Of a stretch of 64,000 nucleotides of DNA, positions 1 to 17,003 are shown in pieces. Positions within the stretch are counted from its first letter, which is position 1; each line of letters opens with the position of its first letter. Location of the stretch: sequence record MW822008.1. The stretch is one strand, 5' to 3'. Position numbers and translations under genes: made by a program. Below the pieces are notes generated by a model. That model was not told the origin of the DNA. It was given only the letters and a program-made list of their open reading frames with translations, and searched no databases. Source of the DNA: Escherichia phage BF17.

Positions 1-2199
1 TTGTTGTGTAAATGAACCACCTGCACCAAAATCATGAACAATTTTGTTTACACGATAAACAGTTTGGTTAAATGTAGTTGGGGTATTAATATCAAGAACA
101 CCAGTGTTATCATTTATAGAAACTACAGGTTGTAATTTCAATAAAAGATATGCTTCAGATGTAATGTAGTTTGCTACATGGTAATCTTCTGGATTAATTT
201 CCATATCTTCTCCATTAATTACCTGTTCAAGATATTGGATATATGAATAATCACTCCAACCTAACCAATATGGGTCACCAACTACACGCATATCCAATTT
301 ACACAAGAATGGACGATTGTAATAGTTGTCACGAATTTTACGGCGGTCCATTTCATATGTACTACTGTTATCGTTCAATGATGCAGATAATGTTGTTTCA
401 TTATTGGTTGCTTCAGTTGGCATTGTGAATACTTCACCATATCGATGACCAATTCCATCGGTTCCACCGTCATTTTCTTCATATGTGGTTACATAATCTT
501 CAATATACTGTGGTAGAACGTTTACTTGATAGTTATTATAACGATCCTGTTCTTCAGCATTACCAACCTGCATTTGTTCTCTTGCTAAAGTTTCTACTCG
601 ATTTAAAAGTTGCTCTTGTGCCTGTGTTAATATACCACCAAGATCACGTGTGACGCGTAAATCACTTGTTTTTGCCCACGCATCTGGTATACTGTTGTAC
701 TGAACACCTTGGATATTCAATTCTTGTGATGTGTGTGTACCAGCATGGTTCGCAACGTCCTGTATTGGACCAGGGTTACGAGTTGTAGCTACAAAGAATT
801 GCTGATCAAACTTCAAATCAAGGTCTAGAATCTCACTATTGAGTCCACTAAACTGATAATTGTAAGTTTTCATGTTAATCTTTGGTTTTTGGTCATTTGG
901 GTCTACATATTTCTCGGCATTTTCAAAGAAATACTCAAATGTAAAGTTTTCTGGCTGTAAATCGGATTCATGAACAATATCACCAATTTTAAAACGAACT
1001 ATATAGAAAACAACTTTATAAACTGACGTGTTTCGGTAATTATCAAATCCAACATACTGTTTAAGTGGGATTATATTAACAAATTGACGAACACTAGTAC
1101 TATCATCAGCCTGTACAGTACAGGTATCTATTACGTCATCGATAATTCGAGAAATTGGAGTACTTGGATTCCATGAAAAGTTTTTAGAACCCTGTGCACC
1201 ACTTTTTGTAGCTCCAGCTTCTGCCATCTGTTTAGAATCATAGTTTATAAACAAATCCTGTAAATCTGGTGCAACTTTAAATTCAAAGAACTTCCCTTCT
1301 GCTAACTCACCAAATTTATAACGCAAATAACCATATTGCTGGTCTGCCATTTGATTCAATTTATCTTCCAAATCAAAACAAAAATCACCAAAGTTTTCTG
1401 CTGTGCAGTTAAATGGTTCTTTAAGAGTCCATTCCACATTATCCACTAGAGCCGCACGGTTATGAACAAGACTCATAGAATACATCATAGTACTACCACT
1501 TTGTGATGCACTAGCGGTAACACTGTTAATCTTCACGGACCATCTACGAGTTGTTTCTGGTATAGTTTCAGGTACACCATTAGTATTGAATCCAATAAAT
1601 TTCAATTCTAATATCAAAGGTAAGTCCATGAACTTATGATACCTTAGTTTATTACTTAAAGAAATTAGTTCATCATATAAACTCATACTATTGTTTTCTG
1701 AAAGGTTCAGTACTGCTGTGTTGAAGCAATAGTTGGTTGTCATCCCTGGAGTTGAAGGACCAGCTTGCGTCATCTGAACACTTGTGATATTATACTTTCC
1801 AGTTACACCACTTTCAGAGATGACATGACGTTGAACTTCAGCATCTGGGTAAAGCCAGAAGTTTTTGAAATCATCCTTGTCTAATGCGAAAAGGGAAAAG
1901 TGCCAAGTTGGATTGTCATACTTTAACAATTTATTGTCATAAGGAATAACAAACTCACTTAGATCCAAGTCTTCATACACTTGGTCAACGCTTGCACTTT
2001 GCTTTGGTAAAGACTGTACGTTACTAACCTTAGCTTTAAAATTGTTTTTTACTTTTTCAAGATCATTTTGCAAAGTATTAGCAGTGGCTTTTAAGCTTTC
2101 AATAGTACTTGTTGCAGTTTCTTTTGCTGCCTTTGCAGAACTTGTGATGTTTGAAATATCATTTTTAAAATTATCAACAGAACTTTGTAAATCTGCCAT
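1..2199 (-). CDS. Large virion structural protein, possibly baseplate/tail; gene continues past the left window edge (3' end missing)
   Basis: ATG at 2199 with GGAG ~9 nt upstream; frame open for 733 codons to position 1. N-terminal coiled-coil-like segment (MADLQSSVDNFKNDISNITSSAKAAKE...). Absent from the ORF track because it has no in-window stop. Confidence 0.5.
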   Translation of the reverse strand, partial: MADLQSSVDNFKNDISNITSSAKAAKETATSTIESLKATANTLQNDLEKVKNNFKAKVSNVQSLPKQSASVDQVYEDLDLSEFVIPYDNKLLKYDNPTWHFSLFALDKDDFKNFWLYPDAEVQRHVISESGVTGKYNITSVQMTQAGPSTPGMTTNYCFNTAVLNLSENNSMSLYDELISLSNKLRYHKFMDLPLILELKFIGFNTNGVPETIPETTRRWSVKINSVTASASQSGSTMMYSMSLVHNRAALVDNVEWTLKEPFNCTAENFGDFCFDLEDKLNQMADQQYGYLRYKFGELAEGKFFEFKVAPDLQDLFINYDSKQMAEAGATKSGAQGSKNFSWNPSTPISRIIDDVIDTCTVQADDSTSVRQFVNIIPLKQYVGFDNYRNTSVYKVVFYIVRFKIGDIVHESDLQPENFTFEYFFENAEKYVDPNDQKPKINMKTYNYQFSGLNSEILDLDLKFDQQFFVATTRNPGPIQDVANHAGTHTSQELNIQGVQYNSIPDAWAKTSDLRVTRDLGGILTQAQEQLLNRVETLAREQMQVGNAEEQDRYNNYQVNVLPQYIEDYVTTYEENDGGTDGIGHRYGEVFTMPTEATNNETTLSASLNDNSSTYEMDRRKIRDNYYNRPFLCKLDMRVVGDPYWLGWSDYSYIQYLEQVINGEDMEINPEDYHVANYITSEAYLLLKLQPVVSINDNTGVLDINTPTTFNQTVYRVNKIVHDFGAGGSFTQQ

Positions 2200-8752: not shown

Positions 8753-8962
8753 TTAGTGCTTCTCGTTTTGTTTTTTAATTTTCTTATTAAAAGACTTAAC
8801 TAATAAGTCTCTATCAATTAGTGGCATATTAAGTAGTGTTCCGTAATCAACACTTTCCATATAAACAGAACACTCCATTAATGCAGTTTTAATATCTGAC
8901 TTATTCAACTCAAATTCCTTAAGTACTTCTTGTATTTCTTCAGGAGATGAGTGGAGAAGCAT
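8753..8962 (-). CDS. Hypothetical small protein (69 aa)
   Basis: ORF in the same unit as the upstream zinc-ribbon protein; no recognisable motif. Confidence 0.4.
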   Translation of the reverse strand: MLLHSSPEEIQEVLKEFELNKSDIKTALMECSVYMESVDYGTLLNMPLIDRDLLVKSFNKKIKKQNEKH

Positions 8963-9798
8963 TATGCGAAAAAATGACTTGGGTCATATTTCAGTCCATT
9001 AATTTCCCATTGATGATTACAGTCACTGCATTCAACTTCCATAGTATGGGAAACACCAATTTCAAGTACTTCATCCATTTTTTCACGAATTATTTTAAGT
9101 GTTCCTTTGGACTGCTGACCTAGCCATTCAGAAATGAATTCATTTTCAGTTACTTCATCACCTTCAGGTGTAATTACCTTAGCAATAACTCCTGCGATCA
9201 TATCAAAGTTGAGTTGTGCCATACTTTCAAATACTTCACCAAACACTTTAACTTTTTCTTCCTGCTCCATTTCGGCAGTTTCAAGGAATTTAGTTTTTTG
9301 TTGTTCTGTAAACATTCTTTCTGCGAAGTTAGAATATTCCTTCCAAGTAAGTGGTCTAAACTCTAAACTTAGTCCATTATCCAATTGTACAGTAGGAACT
9401 TCACTGAAAGTTTGTGCTGTTTCTAGTAGATATGATAAGCTACGCTCAAAACGACCTTCTTTGTTACATTCAGGGCATGTCACATTAATATCATATGATT
9501 CTTCTTTAGAAGCTACTTTAATAGCGATAAGTAGTTGCTCTACGTCATTTACATAAAGTTCATCTGCATCAAGTACGTTAGGTACGCAGTTTTCAATAAC
9601 ACGAGCAATTGCATCACCATTTAGAAGCATATCTGGTGTATTGAGTGTCATTTCATCACGTGCACTACGAGCACAAATGCCACATTTGATACCTTTAGAG
9701 CCAAGAACTCCTTCTTTATAAGGAATCACGCCATTTGTGACCAATTTTGTACCAAGTTCTTCAATTTTAGTATACTTAGCTAGTGGGTTCATTGCCAT
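8962..9798 (-). CDS. Hypothetical zinc-ribbon-containing protein (about 278 aa)
   Basis: GGAG then ATG at 9798 (MAMNPLAKY...); cysteine pairs 'CGIC', 'CPEC', 'CSDC'; acidic C-terminus. Confidence 0.5.
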   Translation of the reverse strand: MAMNPLAKYTKIEELGTKLVTNGVIPYKEGVLGSKGIKCGICARSARDEMTLNTPDMLLNGDAIARVIENCVPNVLDADELYVNDVEQLLIAIKVASKEESYDINVTCPECNKEGRFERSLSYLLETAQTFSEVPTVQLDNGLSLEFRPLTWKEYSNFAERMFTEQQKTKFLETAEMEQEEKVKVFGEVFESMAQLNFDMIAGVIAKVITPEGDEVTENEFISEWLGQQSKGTLKIIREKMDEVLEIGVSHTMEVECSDCNHQWEINGLKYDPSHFFA

Positions 9799-9943
9799 TT
9801 TATTAAATCTCCATGTAATAAATGTCTTTGTAGTATTTATTACCAAAAAATGGGACAAATTGGACAAATGTTATAGATGGGTCTTTTTTATTCGTTATAG
9901 ATTCATAAATATTTCTATAATACATCTATTAAAAGGGAATGTT

Positions 9944-12142
9944 ATGGCTGTCAATACAAGTGATTACCTACTACAGCAGTTGGTTAATCAAACTAAAGAT
10001 AACAATGATAGTTTGACTGCTATCCGTGAGTTATTAGCTGAAAATATAAAGAATGATAAGAAAAAATCAGGTTCAAATAGTAAAAAGAATGGTTCCAGTT
10101 CCAGTTCTTCCAGTAATCGTGGAAATCGTGGAAGTGCACAAGCCGATGACGGGAAAGCATTTGGTAAATTGTTCAAATCACTATCTTCTGAAGTTTCTAA
10201 TGTAAGCAAAACAATGATGAACTCCAGTACCAACGTAAGTACTGTAGTAAACTCATTAGGCGTTAGTGCATCATCATTTGCTGGTTCATTAGCAATGATG
10301 CCAGGTCCAATTGGTGCAGCGGCAGCAGCATTTAAACTCGTTACTGGTGCTGGTCTTGCTGTATATAACGCACTTAATGCACAATTGGAAGTATATACCA
10401 GAATTAACAGTGCTGGTGTTGCATTGGCTGAAGGTTATGGTTCAGTACTGAAAGGTGCAGGTGCATCTATGTTGAGTATGGATGCATTCAGTGAAGCTCT
10501 ACAAACACATAGTTCTGTGGTAGCTCAATTGGATGGGGCATATGGTGATGGTGTTGCTACCTTTGGTAAATTATTAGGAACTGTTCAACAAGCTCAAAAT
10601 GAACTTGGCCTTTATGGTATTTCTCAAAAAACATTAACTGATTTAACTGCAAGAAACATTAAGTTCCAAAAACAATATGGTGGTCGTGAAGCTCTTCGTA
10701 GTATGGACCAAGCTAAAAGTACTGAACAATTCATCATGAGCATGACTAAATTCAGTAAAAGCATGGGTGAGTCCGTTGATGCATTACTAAACAAAACACA
10801 AAACCTAGATAAATCACTCGATACGCGTTCTATGCAAATTGCATTGCAGAACTACTCTGGACTATCCAGTAAAGCTGCTGTAGCAACATCTAAGGCGTTC
10901 AACGAAGCTGCGGGTGCAATGGGTGATGCAGGTGCAGATTTCCTCCGTTTGATATCACACAGATTGTCTATTGGTGGCGTACCGGATGACCTACTCACTC
11001 CAGTACTGAACCAGTTCGCTGATTTAGGTGAAAATCTTGTGCGTAGTGGTGTAACTGATTCACAAGAAATTCGTCGCCAACAATTAGAATTCGTTAAAAA
11101 GAATAAAGAATTAATTAAGCAAGATTTGCTTAACCAGATTCAATTAGGAAACACAACTGCTGCAACCTTCTACCAACAACTATTGGATATGGAAGCAACC
11201 GTAAATGAACCTAAAAATAATCCCGCTGATAAATTAACTCAATTTACTAACCGCTTCAATATGTGGATTAGTAAAGAATTCACTGAACCATTTAATACAA
11301 TGTATGCTAATACACAAAATTCAATTGTGGATTATCTTTCAGACATTGCAGACAGAACTGATGGTGCATGGGAGTTTATTGGGGAATTGGCTCTTGATGG
11401 ATTTGGGTTAGTACCTATTGCTAAAGATGCAATTGCTTACCTTGATCGTATTGGTGCTGAATTTACAGCTTGGTTGGATGGATTGGGTGCAGATATATTC
11501 GGTTCAGGTTACTCTAAAGTGTCAGAAGCATTTGATACCTTTATGAATAACTTAATGGATTTACCTGGTAACCTATGGAATTCTGTTAAAAGTTGGTTCG
11601 GTGGTGGTTCTGATAATGATATAAAACTCAATAACAGTACTGAAACCCCAGCAGAAAGCGTAAACAACATCATTGACAACGGTGTAAATAGTGTTAGTGA
11701 TTATTTTGCAGGGATGTGGGATAAGTTCAACAAATGGAACACCGCACGTAACTACAAAGAACCAAAACCACTACCATCTGATTATGCTGACAGTTTATTC
11801 AACCGTCCAGGAGTAGAACGTATTCGTCCTGTTATTGAAAAAACCAATAACGTTGCTCCAGAAATAACTGTATCTCGTAAAGATTTTGATAAAACTGCAT
11901 GGGCACCAGGTGAACCACCAGTTCCACCAAAACCTGACGATACAGAGGCAATTAAGAAGATGATAAATAATGGTAGTGCAGTGACATCGAGAACTGGACC
12001 ACCAGCACCGATTTCTGATGAAATGAAAGAAATACTCAAAAAGCTTGCCGATGTTAATGAACAATCACTATCTGCTGTACAACAGACAAATAATTATCTA
12101 AGAACTATCTCTGAAAACACCCAAGGTGAGAGAAACAGTTAA
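9944..12142 (+). CDS. Tape-measure-like or injected structural protein (732 aa, low-complexity, Gly/Ala/Ser-rich)
   Basis: ATG at 9944 after AAAGGGA; Ser run 'NGSSSSSSSNRG', hydrophobic Gly/Ala segment 'MMPGPIGAAAAAFKLVTGAGLAVY'; directly upstream of the portal gene. The track's longer ORF from 9737 overlaps the divergent gene. Confidence 0.35.
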   Translation: MAVNTSDYLLQQLVNQTKDNNDSLTAIRELLAENIKNDKKKSGSNSKKNGSSSSSSSNRGNRGSAQADDGKAFGKLFKSLSSEVSNVSKTMMNSSTNVSTVVNSLGVSASSFAGSLAMMPGPIGAAAAAFKLVTGAGLAVYNALNAQLEVYTRINSAGVALAEGYGSVLKGAGASMLSMDAFSEALQTHSSVVAQLDGAYGDGVATFGKLLGTVQQAQNELGLYGISQKTLTDLTARNIKFQKQYGGREALRSMDQAKSTEQFIMSMTKFSKSMGESVDALLNKTQNLDKSLDTRSMQIALQNYSGLSSKAAVATSKAFNEAAGAMGDAGADFLRLISHRLSIGGVPDDLLTPVLNQFADLGENLVRSGVTDSQEIRRQQLEFVKKNKELIKQDLLNQIQLGNTTAATFYQQLLDMEATVNEPKNNPADKLTQFTNRFNMWISKEFTEPFNTMYANTQNSIVDYLSDIADRTDGAWEFIGELALDGFGLVPIAKDAIAYLDRIGAEFTAWLDGLGADIFGSGYSKVSEAFDTFMNNLMDLPGNLWNSVKSWFGGGSDNDIKLNNSTETPAESVNNIIDNGVNSVSDYFAGMWDKFNKWNTARNYKEPKPLPSDYADSLFNRPGVERIRPVIEKTNNVAPEITVSRKDFDKTAWAPGEPPVPPKPDDTEAIKKMINNGSAVTSRTGPPAPISDEMKEILKKLADVNEQSLSAVQQTNNYLRTISENTQGERNS

Positions 12143-12154
12143 GGACGAACAATA

Positions 12155-13891
12155 ATGAGTTGGAAACGACATATGACAATGGGGAGATCGAAGTTATCGG
12201 TTGTCCCTAATCAGTCCAGTAATAGCAACAAATCAACAGGAACGAAAACAAATTTCGCTTCCTATCTTCCAGTAGTATACAATGGTTTAGCTAACCGTAC
12301 TGAACGTTATAGTCAGTATGAACAGATGGACCAAGATCCTGAAATTAGAACAGCACTTAATATCATTGCTGACTTCTGTACACAAAGTACTGAAGATTTT
12401 GGTCTTCCATATAAAATCAAATATAAAGATGATATTGGTGATACAGAAGTAACTACTATTGAAGACCGCTTGGATGCATGGACTGAACAAAATGATTTTA
12501 AAACCAGAATGTATGAAATTGTACGTGGCCTATTAAAATACGGTGACCAATTCTTCATTCGTGACCCAGAAACATTTGACTGGTACTGGGTAAGCCCAAA
12601 AAACGTTGAACAAGTATTCGTTAACGAAGCAACCGGAAAAACCCCTGTAATTTATTATATCCGTGACGTATCTTTGAATCTTAAAGATAAAGTGTTTAGT
12701 AACTTGCAAGTTGGTTTTGACAAAACTGCATATCCTGGTGCAATCCCTACCACATTAGGTGGCGGTGGTTCAGTAGCAGCAGGTGGTGCATCTGGTTTTA
12801 CTAACCAAGGAAACTCTGCTGACCCATTCAGTACTAACGGTCGTCTTGATGTTATTCCAGTTGGTGCAGAACACGTAATTCATCTAACCCTAAATACAGG
12901 ACAAGATGGAGTTTGGCCTTTTGGTACTAGTATACTTGAAGATGTTTTCAAAGTCTATAAACAAAAAGAATTACTTGAAGATAGTATTATTATCTATCGT
13001 GTTCAACGTGCTCCAGAGCGTCGTGTATTTAAAATCGACGTTGGTGATATGCAAACTCACCAAGCAATGGCATACGTAGAACGATTCAAAAATGAAATTC
13101 ACCAAAGACGTATCCCTTCAAATAAAGGTGGCAGTACTTCTCTAATGGATGCAGCATATAATCCATTAAGTATTCTAGAAGATTACTTCTTCCCACAAAC
13201 TTCTGAAGGTCGTGGTTCAGATGTACAAACACTTCCTGGTGGTGATAACTTAGGTCAGATTGATGACTTGCGTTACTTCAACAATAAATTGATTCGTGGA
13301 TTGCAAATTCCAGCTTCATATCTACCGCAAGGTCCAGATGATGGTGGTGTATCACTATTTGGTGATGGTGCAACACAAGCAATGGCAAGTGAATTACGTT
13401 TTAATAACCAATGTATGCGTTATCAACGTTTGGTTGCAAAACTATTTGATGCAGAATTTAAACGTTTTATGGTTAAAAATGGATATAACATTAGTACTTC
13501 ATCTTTTGAAGTAATTATGAATCCACCTATTAACTTGGCTTCTTATCGTAAAGCGGAACTAGATGCTAAACTAATTAACACCTATCTCCCACTTAACGAT
13601 CTGCCATATATGGCAAAACAAACTATTCTTGAAAAAATGGGCTTCTCTAAAGCTGATATTGTTAAGAATGAGCAAATGTGGCTCCAAGAAAATCCACAAG
13701 ATGGTTCTGCTCCGTCAAGTGGTGAAGAAGATGCTGCTGGGTTGCAATCTGTTGGTATAGATGCTCCTAACGATCCTGGTATGGATTTGGGTGTTGATGG
13801 TGACGGTAACTTAGAAAGTGCCGATGCTGAATACCAAGAACAACAAGGAAGTGCAGGTTTTAACCCGAATAATTTAGGCGATTCTTTTTAA
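12155..13891 (+). CDS. 20: Portal protein (T4 gp20 family)
   Basis: 'IIYRVQRAPERRVFKIDVGDM' and 'EDYFFPQTSEGRGSDVQTLPGGDNLGQIDDLRYF' match remembered T4 gp20 blocks ('[21 protein letters not shown]', 'EDYWL...VDTLPGADNTGNMEDIRWF'). Confidence 0.85.
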   Translation: MSWKRHMTMGRSKLSVVPNQSSNSNKSTGTKTNFASYLPVVYNGLANRTERYSQYEQMDQDPEIRTALNIIADFCTQSTEDFGLPYKIKYKDDIGDTEVTTIEDRLDAWTEQNDFKTRMYEIVRGLLKYGDQFFIRDPETFDWYWVSPKNVEQVFVNEATGKTPVIYYIRDVSLNLKDKVFSNLQVGFDKTAYPGAIPTTLGGGGSVAAGGASGFTNQGNSADPFSTNGRLDVIPVGAEHVIHLTLNTGQDGVWPFGTSILEDVFKVYKQKELLEDSIIIYRVQRAPERRVFKIDVGDMQTHQAMAYVERFKNEIHQRRIPSNKGGSTSLMDAAYNPLSILEDYFFPQTSEGRGSDVQTLPGGDNLGQIDDLRYFNNKLIRGLQIPASYLPQGPDDGGVSLFGDGATQAMASELRFNNQCMRYQRLVAKLFDAEFKRFMVKNGYNISTSSFEVIMNPPINLASYRKAELDAKLINTYLPLNDLPYMAKQTILEKMGFSKADIVKNEQMWLQENPQDGSAPSSGEEDAAGLQSVGIDAPNDPGMDLGVDGDGNLESADAEYQEQQGSAGFNPNNLGDSF

Positions 13892-14192: not shown

Positions 14193-14292
14193 ACAAAAAT
14201 CGCACTTTTTAAAGCTTTTAAAAATGGCGAAATTTTTCAGTACTAAATAATATCATACTTTATATGAATGTAATATATCTATGGAGGATATA

Positions 14293-15123
14293 ATGGCGAA
14301 TTTAAAACTACTACAAGAAGCAATTGAAGCGTTTGCAAACGGCGAACAAGATGTTGCTGATAAAAAAATGCGTAAGTACTTTGTTGAGCAAGCTCAAGAA
14401 ATCAATAAAGAACTAGAAGAAAGCATGGACGAAGAAGAATGTGAAGTTGAAGTCAAAGACGAAGAAAAACTTGACGAAGACTTTGATGTTCAACCAGACG
14501 CTGGTCTAAATGCTGAAATCGAATACACCCTAGGTGAAGAAGATGAAAGTGCAGAAGAAGAAGTTGAATTCTCTGCTGATGCTGATGGCGAAGAAGTTGA
14601 CGCTGAAGCAGAAGTTGGTGCAGAAGTTCCTTCCGAAGACCAATGGGAATCTATTCAAGATGCTTTCCGTGGCCTACAACAAATGTTTGACGAAATCGGC
14701 GGTGATGAAGTTGACCTAGGTTCTGAAGACGAAGTTGAAGTTGGTGCGGAAGAAGAATTCGGTGCTGATGGTGAAGAATCTGAAGACGAATTTGCTGATG
14801 TACAATTCGGTGATGAGAAAGTTGGTGAGTCTTTCAAACTTAAGCAAGTTGCTGCGGTTGATAAGAAAGAAAAAGCTGGCGTTAATACCAAGTCTCCAGT
14901 TGCTCCAGAAGCTAAATCTCCAGTTCAAGGTGTTGCTCCAGTGAAATTCGCAAAAGCTTCCGAAAAACAAGTAGATTATGATTTTGAAAACGAAGATGCT
15001 ATGTCTCACACTGATGAAGACCTAGGTAAAAATGCTCGTGGCGAAATGAAAGATGTTGCGAAGCCAAAAAATACCGCTTCTAAATCTCGTTCTCCACTAC
15101 CAAAATCACAACCAAAAATCTAA
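14293..15123 (+). CDS. Highly acidic prohead core/scaffold-like protein
   Basis: GGAGGATATA then ATG at 14293; long Glu/Asp runs; sits between portal and prohead protease as T4 gp68 does. Confidence 0.4.
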   Translation: MANLKLLQEAIEAFANGEQDVADKKMRKYFVEQAQEINKELEESMDEEECEVEVKDEEKLDEDFDVQPDAGLNAEIEYTLGEEDESAEEEVEFSADADGEEVDAEAEVGAEVPSEDQWESIQDAFRGLQQMFDEIGGDEVDLGSEDEVEVGAEEEFGADGEESEDEFADVQFGDEKVGESFKLKQVAAVDKKEKAGVNTKSPVAPEAKSPVQGVAPVKFAKASEKQVDYDFENEDAMSHTDEDLGKNARGEMKDVAKPKNTASKSRSPLPKSQPKI

Positions 15124-15785: not shown

Positions 15786-15793
15786 ATATAAAT
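15786..15793 (+). promoter_or_regulatory. T4-type late promoter motif TATAAATA upstream of the scaffold gene
   Basis: aaaaaTATAAATAtttg about 50 nt upstream of the ATG at 15842; a gp55-like sigma is encoded in the window. Confidence 0.4.
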
Positions 15794-15841
15794 ATTTGTA
15801 TGTTGAAGTACAGATATTTCAGTACTTAAAGGAGAGAACGA

Positions 15842-16995: not shown

Positions 16996-17003
16996 TATAA
17001 ATA
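16996..17003 (+). promoter_or_regulatory. T4-type late promoter motif TATAAATA upstream of the major capsid gene
   Basis: tttttcagttcTATAAATAatatcatact; the surrounding ~28 bp block is also found at 14231-14259. Confidence 0.45.

Follow-up and report, generated by a model that had tools for sequence, protein, structure and literature searches.

A gene between a baseplate hub gene and the portal gene

The window analysed here, a 64,000-nt stretch of DNA from Escherichia phage BF17 (MW822008.1), is 99% identical in DNA to Ecwhy_1, vB_Ec-M-J and fEgEco12 and, judging from its sequence, belongs to a RaK2-like jumbo coliphage, a myovirus. We focused on a probable tail tape measure gene of the phrog_14121 family (9944-12142, plus strand), defined by its open reading frame and a full-length profile match, whose product has 732 aa, a computed mass of 79.1 kDa and a computed pI of 5.2. 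The T4-type portal gene starts 12 nt downstream (12155-13891, plus strand; PF07230, E = 2.8e-112), directly after the 732-aa gene as the earlier note had described, and the two genes are probably co-transcribed. Furthermore, the 732-aa gene has the same orientation as the head operon and is collinear with the genes for protease, scaffold and capsid. Its divergent neighbour on the other side is a gp26-like baseplate hub gene (8962-9798, minus strand; PF12322 T4_baseplate, E = 1.1e-23; phrog_150), which is followed directly at its 3' side by a small conserved ORF of 69 aa (8753-8962, minus strand) with equivalents of 58-71 aa at four distant loci (L019-L022) and in Vibrio phage 2.275.O. A gp27/VgrG-like baseplate hub gene, recognized by AF2 and Foldseek, occupies the beginning of the window (1-2199, minus strand), whose start cuts off the end of the gene and leaves 733 of its 751 aa.

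The mechanically derived ORF begins at GTG 9737 and would yield 801 aa up to the stop at 12142, whereas ATG 9944 yields 732 aa. The methionine at 9944 is invariant in the family alignment, corresponds to the annotated start in fEgEco12, RaK2, pEa_SNUABM_50 and CBB, and has an AAGGGA ribosome-binding site 5' of it, while the extension from GTG 9737 runs over the N-terminus of the divergent gp26-like gene. We conclude that this 5' extension is spurious and that the 732-aa frame, as first noted, is correct. Its conservation and the homologues found in virions (see below) show that the gene is real. The divergent intergenic region (9799-9943) carries, besides AAGGGA, the element CATAAATA at 9904-9911, which has one mismatch to the T4 late-promoter consensus TATAAATA and may represent a putative late promoter.

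Protein architecture and predicted structure

The AF2 model of the 732-aa protein contains 23 helices and no strands at a low pLDDT of 45; low AF2 confidence is usual for extended rulers. The N-terminus forms a conserved helix (aa 1-40; 9944-10063, plus strand), seen in the alignment and as helix 3-40 in the model, in which M1, D7, Y8, Q11, Q12, D22, L24, R28 and L31 are invariant. It leads into a K/S/G/N/R linker (aa 38-70; 10055-10153, plus strand), identified as low-complexity by entropy, composition, alignment and AF2, which is non-helical in the model and differs in length and sequence between relatives. This linker holds the serine run reported previously, seven Ser at residues 51-57. 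The protein as a whole had been described as of low complexity and rich in Gly, Ala and Ser. The first description fits residues ~38-70 and overstates the case for the rest, and the second applies only to residues 51-200 and 301-350, where the G+A+S fraction reaches 0.42-0.46 compared to 27% overall.

A conserved core (aa ~95-300; 10226-10843, plus strand) emerged from the profile search and the core alignment. Within it lies a small-residue-rich, moderately hydrophobic segment (aa 116-141; 10289-10366, plus strand), apparent from Kyte-Doolittle analysis and the alignment, in which A129, F130, V140 and Y141 are invariant. The peptide quoted in the earlier note, MMPGPIGAAAAAFKLVTGAGLAVY, is found here at residues 117-140. 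It had been interpreted as a hydrophobic glycine zipper; the small-residue segment is indeed present, but it lacks a GxxxGxxxG register, contains one Lys and reaches a Kyte-Doolittle maximum of 1.52 (19-residue window), below the usual membrane-helix threshold of 1.6. Some relatives score 1.6-1.9, and the Vibrio homologue is without the segment (0.89). Towards the C-terminus, a Pro-rich, poorly conserved and non-helical region (aa 603-690; 11750-12013, plus strand; AF2, alignment) precedes a C-terminal helix that is strongly conserved in the alignment (aa 692-732; 12017-12139, plus strand), with Q714, L719, R720, I722, N725, T726, R730 and N731 invariant and the sequence end ...QQTNNYLRTISENTQGERNS (...NNYLRTISENTQGERNS). 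The protein is without a hydrolase domain.

Family members and distant relatives

The protein matches phrog_14121 ("virion structural protein") over its whole length (E = 6.9e-297; residues 1-732 against profile positions 1-745 of 745). The proteins of vB_Ec-M-J, Ecwhy_1, WPEC3 and EC.P1 are 99.9% identical to it, those of 121Q, PBECO4 and phAPEC6 ~79%, and the family is present in at least 72 phage records at identities from 100% down to ~25%, with one copy per genome in RaK2-like jumbo phages. Its length stays at 681-749 aa as identity drops to ~33%. Orthologues in RaK2 (ORF088), 121Q (gp597), phAPEC6 (gp231c), CBB (CBB_251), GAP32 (GAP32_244), fEgEco12 (g344) and vB_Ec-M-J are full-length, 33-99.9% identical and placed in the same way between a gp26-like gene and the portal gene, without material difference. 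A search of public genomes and metagenomes with the family profile retrieved 349 distant cluster representatives, with coverage peaking at profile positions 100-300. When distant representatives were compared to isolate phages by tblastn, matches were confined to RaK2-like phages and Vibrio phage 2.275.O; a search for loci related to two of the distant relatives (P0083, P0105) found none.

For near-identical copies, a tape measure role is already assigned in several public genome records. The vB_Ec-M-J protein is labelled 'tail length tape measure protein' and those of pEa_SNUABM_47 and 50 'putative tape measure protein', fEgEco12 g344 is named 'pore-forming tail tip protein pb2', and the RaK2 ORF088 record notes similarity to the phiFL4A tape measure. 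In the literature, we found no experiment that identifies the tape measure of the RaK2-like lineage.

Several distant relatives carry enzymatic domains, i.e., a C-terminal phage lysozyme (P0148), a peptidase or endolysin domain (P0142) and a tail-associated lysin domain (P0163). In addition, 3 of the 38 distant relatives checked one by one (P0174, P0137 and P0187) matched the tape-measure PHROGs 58, 1272, 167, 28, 1535, 4200, 991 and 4070 at E = 1e-14 to 1e-6, in regions overlapping their phrog_14121 matches. The 732-aa protein itself matches none of these classical families, so that the link is transitive; the bridging alignments are long and of low density and could partly reflect shared helical composition.

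At relaxed thresholds, Pfam and NCBIfam yielded noise hits only, with no match to PF25671 or another tape-measure family. PDB sequences searched with the single protein and with profiles of the family, the distant relatives and the trimmed core returned coiled-coil and designed-helix noise together with weak tape-measure chains (E = 1.4e-4 to 0.07), none of them convincing; at best, the family profiles reached solved tape measures at E = 1.4e-4 to 0.025. Given the lack of a Pfam or NCBIfam match and the low-complexity stretch, one might consider a protein without a structural role, or an ORF that arose by chance from biased composition. The gene is conserved in at least 72 phage records as well as in 349 clusters, and its product was detected by mass spectrometry in virions of three relatives, which already refutes this reading; we regard its probability as negligible. 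Homology to a non-structural family or absence from virions had been named as grounds for abandoning a structural role; we found no such homology, and the protein is present in virions of relatives.

The gp26-like hub gene is the constant neighbour

The synteny comparison proposed in the earlier note placed the gp26-like hub gene next to the family gene in all 11 contexts examined. The two genes are divergent in fEgEco12, RaK2, pEa_SNUABM_50, CBB and six distant metagenomic contigs, and represent an invariant divergent pair even in very distant relatives. In Vibrio phage 2.275.O, the family gene follows the gp27-like gene and precedes the gp26-like gene on the same strand, and the portal gene diverges from all three. 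The role of gp26 in T4 hub assembly is poorly understood; the pairing hints that gp26 works directly with the tape measure.

The arrangement had been described as unlike that of T4. This holds insofar as the portal gene comes next, and not genes 48 and 54 as after T4 gene 29. Moreover, genes 51, 27 and 28 do not intervene between the 732-aa gene and gene 26, and the gp27-like gene adjoins a gp5-like gene elsewhere. However, the divergence from a gene-26-like hub gene is that of the T4 51-27-28-29 operon: T4 has 26(-) followed by 51, 27, 28 and 29(+), and the window has gp26-like(-) followed by the 732-aa gene(+).

The position beside the portal gene raises the alternative of an internal head or ejection protein on the portal axis that would be expelled with the DNA to help it cross the envelope, perhaps as a component of the 91 x 18 nm inner-body rod of phAPEC6 and 121Q. 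Besides the 12-nt distance to the portal gene and the alignment with the protease, scaffold and capsid genes, an inner body does run along the portal axis in these two phages. However, it is the gp26-like hub gene and not the portal gene that invariably adjoins the family gene: genes of 178 aa and 1286 aa separate the family gene from the portal gene at two distant loci (L021, L022), and in Vibrio phage 2.275.O the family gene runs with the hub genes, away from the portal gene. We also looked for a prohead-protease site of the pattern L/I-x-E after an N-terminal capsid-targeting sequence. An L-A-E motif at residues 31-33 resembles the T4 cleavage site, but Glu33 is replaced by Asp in several orthologues. 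Likewise, lysozyme domains as seen in some relatives are known from podovirus ejection proteins, and P0148 matched phrog_2083 ('internal virion lysozyme motif'), but this match is confined to the lysozyme domain. Beyond adjacency to the portal gene, in an orientation that Vibrio phage 2.275.O does not keep, nothing specific speaks for the internal or head-associated options. Finally, a phage with a long tail must have a ruler, and we saw no other candidate when inspecting hub and baseplate clusters. Together with the virion data described below, these observations make an internal protein improbable.

Virion proteomics and tail length

Published mass spectrometry, which the earlier note had called for, places homologues in virions of phAPEC6, CBB and GAP32. 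In phAPEC6, gp231c (79.72 kDa), encoded beside the portal gp230c, was represented by 1 peptide; its mass agrees with the 79.75 kDa that we computed for the 734-aa orthologue. CBB_251 yielded 29 peptides and 50% coverage in CBB virions, and the GAP32 homologue is marked as detected in the CBB supplement, while the homologue was not detected by mass spectrometry of RaK2. We considered whether the CBB_251 row might be a mislabelled portal entry and rejected this, as the supplement gives each gene its own entry and the CBB portal was not detected. The high peptide count in CBB would suit an internal protein, but the single phAPEC6 peptide does not fit a bulk component of the inner body.

The reported tails measure 128 nm in RaK2, 123 nm in CBB and ~120 nm in JP4, and the phAPEC6 tail has 25 sheath rings. 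With proteins of 720-734 aa, RaK2, CBB and JP4 come to 1.63-1.78 Å per residue compared to ~1.7 for T4 gp29 and a tape-measure criterion of ~1.5 Å per residue, which, for three phages with similar tails, is a sign of consistency and not a correlation. The homologue of Vibrio phage 2.275.O has 619 aa, from which a tail of ~100-110 nm would be predicted.

Two other proteins were evaluated as rulers. The sole other large virion gene nearby without an assigned role encodes the 751-aa neighbour (fEgEco12 g333), which we rejected because it folds as a gp27-like hub: its AF2 model has an alpha/beta fold (pTM 0.63), and Foldseek matched it to T4 gp27, the phi812 hub, Mu gp44 and VgrG with probability 1.0. 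The giant RaK2 ORF070 was rejected on length, since its 3326 aa would by far exceed what a tail of 128 nm requires. Inspection of hub and baseplate clusters revealed no further long helical virion protein.

Comparison with T4 gp29 and T5 pb2

T4 gp29 (PF25671, phrog_1283) is a baseplate hub subunit and the tail-length determinator. Like T4, the phage of the window is contractile-tailed, with gp5-, gp6-, gp25-, gp26-, gp27-, gp48- and gp53-like baseplate genes, and the 732-aa protein shares with gp29 a gene divergent from the gene-26 homologue, a long and helical chain and a similar ratio of residues to tail length. A hydrophobic segment of gp29 (residues 237-255; Kyte-Doolittle 2.2) is analogous to aa 116-141. 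The two proteins differ in length (732 aa vs 590), and a search for homology gave no significant BLASTP match and, against an alignment of the gp29 family, an hhalign probability of 0.1% with the whole phrog_14121 family and 0.6% with its core.

T5 pb2 is a pore-forming, fusogenic and muralytic tape measure, after which the depositors of fEgEco12 named their protein. It combines a helical ruler with a hydrophobic segment, as the 732-aa protein probably does; its C-terminal cell-wall hydrolase is paralleled in some distant relatives of the family and absent from the 732-aa protein, and T5, unlike the phage studied here, is a siphovirus. PF23789 (Pre_tape_measure), presumably the Pfam family of T5 pb2, did not match the 732-aa protein; among 12 family members, a single one hit it, short of the Pfam cut-off (E = 0.011).

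The missing gp29 homology would be compatible with a baseplate-hub or tail-lumen accessory, such as a plug, a hub assembly factor or a membrane-penetration protein, with another protein measuring the tail. The gene is linked to hub genes, and assembly of the T4 hub requires several poorly conserved proteins, e.g. gp28 and gp51, for which we identified no counterparts here. On the other hand, the size, the all-helical prediction and 1.6-1.8 Å per residue suit a ruler, the length is kept while the sequence diverges, and the hub and baseplate clusters inspected offer no second long helical virion protein; the giant ORF070 would be too long. We therefore consider an accessory role unlikely.

A candidate tail tape measure

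Among the three roles proposed in the earlier note, i.e., a tape measure, an ejected internal protein or a head-associated protein, the first is supported by the hub-gene synteny, the all-helical prediction, the match between length and tail, the presence in virions, and relatives that are fused to lysins or match tape-measure PHROGs. On these grounds, the product of the 732-aa gene is most likely the tape measure in the tail of this RaK2-like jumbo myovirus and corresponds in function to T4 gp29.

The analogy with T4 gp29, lambda gpH and T5 pb2 is the basis for inferring a ruler that resides in the tube lumen, its copy number, its ejection and a possible membrane role, and for the mechanism that follows. 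Three or six copies of the extended, almost wholly α-helical protein would start on a baseplate hub that includes the gp26-like and gp27-like proteins together with the gp5-like spike. The protein would probably be anchored in the gp27-like hub by its C-terminal helix, with the N-terminal helix probably at the end of the tail nearest the head. The tail tube would then polymerise round these copies, with the protein length setting a tube of ~120 nm (~25 sheath rings). Upon sheath contraction, the copies would be expelled ahead of the DNA, and the hydrophobic segment of aa 116-141 may help to form or line a route through the cell envelope.

As the probable ruler gene is fixed between hub gene 26 and the portal gene throughout this jumbo-phage lineage and probably transcribed with the head operon, we also considered that its product might sit on the portal axis as well, in the inner-body rod or an ejection complex, or might link the assembly of the head to the control of tail length. 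It would then represent a novel type of protein with roles in both head and tail instead of a plain gp29 analogue, a prospect that we judge to be quite remote.

As a gene assignment, the tape measure reading is an ordinary finding that carries little weight beyond annotation. It suggests renaming phrog_14121, now listed in the head and packaging category as 'virion structural protein', as probable tail tape measure, and the neighbouring phrog_11190 as gp27-like baseplate hub. With both renamed, the set of T4-like hub proteins in RaK2-like jumbo phages would be complete.

A probable tail tape measure is encoded upstream of the portal

The gene at 9944-12142 (+) encodes a protein of 732 aa, which the earlier note had read as a tape measure, an ejected internal protein or a head-associated protein. 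The first of these is the best-supported reading: the protein probably serves as tail tape measure, in the role of T4 gp29, with which it shares no detectable homology. The open reading frame, which ends at 12142, extends mechanically to a GTG at 9737 (801 aa); this extension is spurious and runs into the start of the divergent neighbour. Starting from the ATG at 9944 instead gives the 732 residues of the earlier note. The corresponding Met is invariant across the family alignment, the ATG is the annotated start in four relatives, and an AAGGGA ribosome-binding site lies 5' of it.

The hydrophobic peptide quoted in the earlier note maps to residues 117-140, and its serine run comprises seven Ser at residues 51-57. 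Low complexity holds for a K/S/G/N/R linker (~residues 38-70) but not elsewhere. Likewise, Gly, Ala and Ser make up 27% of the whole protein, with values above 40% confined to residues 51-200 and 301-350. The supposed glycine zipper is better described as a moderately hydrophobic stretch of small residues (Kyte-Doolittle maximum 1.52) that contains Lys.

AlphaFold2 with the family alignment predicted a protein that is helical from end to end, free of strands, except for the linker and a Pro-rich region (residues 603-690). Low model confidence such as this (pLDDT 45) is common for extended rulers and not for globular proteins. Both termini are the best-conserved parts in the family alignment (N-terminal MAVNTSDYLLQQL..., C-terminal ...NNYLRTISENTQGERNS).

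The family extends to distant relatives, some with C-terminal hydrolases

The single-copy gene is 99.2-99.6% identical in DNA to its counterparts in the Escherichia phages EC.P1, Ecwhy_1, vB_Ec-M-J, WPEC3 and fEgEco12, all jumbo myoviruses of 354-384 kb. Protein identity is 79% to the 121Q, PBECO4 and phAPEC6 group and 33-38% to the more distant RaK2, K64-1, CBB, GAP32 and Serratia phage BF. Within the close RaK2-like group, identity drops to roughly one third, yet the length stays within 681-749 aa. A match to phrog_14121 ('virion structural protein') spans the full protein (E = 6.9e-297); a search of Pfam and NCBIfam gave no match, even at E = 10.

Searching 1.84 billion cluster representatives with the family profile yielded 349 hits, which share a core of approximately residues 100-300; of the distant representatives, 60 were sampled, and every one of them matches phrog_14121. 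Some distant relatives carry C-terminal cell-wall hydrolases, namely a phage lysozyme (P0148, which retains the gp26-like neighbour), a peptidase or endolysin domain (P0142) and a tail-associated lysin domain (P0163). Three others (P0174, P0137 and P0187) also match classical tape-measure PHROGs (E = 1e-14 to 1e-6) in regions overlapping the shared core; these links depend on long, sparse alignments, and composition may account for part of them. Solved tape measures gave no match to any family profile above helical noise.

The gene is paired with a gp26-like baseplate hub gene

Upstream and divergent lies a gp26-like baseplate hub gene (8962-9798, -; PF12322, E = 1.1e-23). T4 shows this geometry too: its hub operon 51-27-28-29, in which gene 29 encodes the tape measure, runs divergently from gene 26. 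The divergent pair was also found in fEgEco12, RaK2, pEa_SNUABM_50 and CBB; six distant metagenomic contigs have it as well, with proteins that can hardly be aligned to that of BF17. The pairing is invariant across very distant relatives, a hint of direct cooperation between gp26 and the tape measure. The gp26-like protein contains paired CxxC motifs, with weak zinc-ribbon Pfam matches. Directly 3' of its gene, with overlapping stop and start, is a 69-aa ORF (8753-8962, -); equivalents of 58-71 aa occur in all relatives inspected (L019-L022, contigs carrying distant homologues, and Vibrio NVP2275O_435), and its product may be a hub assembly partner.

A 751-aa 'virion structural protein' is encoded at 1-2199 (-, cut at the window start; phrog_11190, no Pfam match), and public records give it no specific assignment. 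Its predicted alpha/beta model (AlphaFold2, pTM 0.63) retrieved T4 gp27, the phi812 hub, Mu gp44 and VgrG in Foldseek with probability 1.0 (E = 2e-7 to 1e-5 for the phi812 hub and T4 gp27). Judged by this model, it is a gp27/VgrG/Mu gp44-like baseplate hub, differing from these in an extra N-terminal helix of ~50 aa and in insertions. As the sole other large unassigned virion gene nearby, it was considered as the ruler and rejected owing to its gp27-like fold.

In Vibrio phage 2.275.O, the 619-aa homologue of the candidate tape measure has a 707-aa gene on one side and a gp26-like gene on the other, all three on one strand. Since the 707-aa gene is homologous to the modelled 751-aa hub (33% identity), the order is gp27-like, tape-measure family, gp26-like, as in a T4-style hub cluster.

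As the earlier note had stated, the portal follows directly; it is T4-type and begins 12 nt downstream (12155-13891, +; PF07230, E = 2.8e-112). Adjacency to the portal is the sole basis for reading the protein as an internal or ejected head protein; its orientation is not conserved, the Vibrio homologue lying on the strand opposite to the portal, and we regard this reading as improbable. The portal is usually the next gene in the distant contigs as well, and an extra gene precedes it in two: one of 178 aa (L021, 5044-5580) and one of 1286 aa without a Pfam match (L022, 12343-16203). In L020 (8689-11550), the portal gene encodes 953 aa, and its Portal_T4 domain is interrupted by an intein (PF14890), for which a faint HNH match was also seen.

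Virion presence and tail length

Virion proteomics, which had been proposed as a check, is available from published data, and the counts are inconsistent across phages. In phAPEC6, gp231c, a hypothetical protein of 79.72 kDa adjoining portal gp230c, was detected by one peptide; for the 734-aa orthologue the calculated mass is 79.75 kDa. The CBB orthologue, CBB_251, yielded 29 peptides (50% coverage), and the GAP32 orthologue is also marked as detected in the CBB supplement (PMC5259590). In CBB virions the portal, CBB_252, went undetected (Table 4 and supplement; PMC5259590), and 29 peptides is a surprising yield for CBB_251 if, as expected, 3-6 copies are present. Proteomics of RaK2 virions did not detect gp088, which the RaK2 authors had assigned to the tail genes because it weakly resembles the tape measure of an Enterococcus phage.

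Tails measure 128 nm in RaK2, 123 nm in CBB and ~120 nm in JP4, corresponding to 1.63-1.78 Å per residue for proteins of 720-734 aa; the ratio for T4 gp29 is likewise ~1.7 Å. By analogy with other tape measures, a few copies would be anchored at the hub of gp27-like, gp5-like and gp26-like proteins and span the lumen of the tube, would set the tube length at ~120 nm and would be expelled ahead of the DNA. That the protein is instead a hub accessory without a ruler function seems to us a slim prospect.

As a prediction, the tape measure is not new, and the finding is an ordinary one. GenBank already gives near-identical proteins the names 'tail length tape measure protein' in vB_Ec-M-J and, in fEgEco12, 'pore-forming tail tip protein, pb2'; Eneladusvirus homologues are called 'putative tape measure protein'. 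Added here are the gp27-like identity proposed for the neighbouring 751-aa protein and the pairing of gp26-like and tape-measure-like genes across the whole lineage.

Late-promoter-like motifs and a head-operon neighbour

Exact copies of TATAAATA, the T4 late-promoter consensus, lie at 15787-15794 and 16996-17003 (+), just 5' of the genes for the scaffold-like and major capsid proteins; the tape-measure-like gene has CATAAATA at 9904-9911. Across the whole window, TATAAATA occurs five times against 7.3 expected, which is not above chance. Between the portal and prohead protease genes, 14281-15123 (+) encodes a very acidic, D/E-rich protein of 280 aa (phrog_15696, 'virion structural protein') in the position of T4 gp67 and gp68, which may be a prohead core protein.
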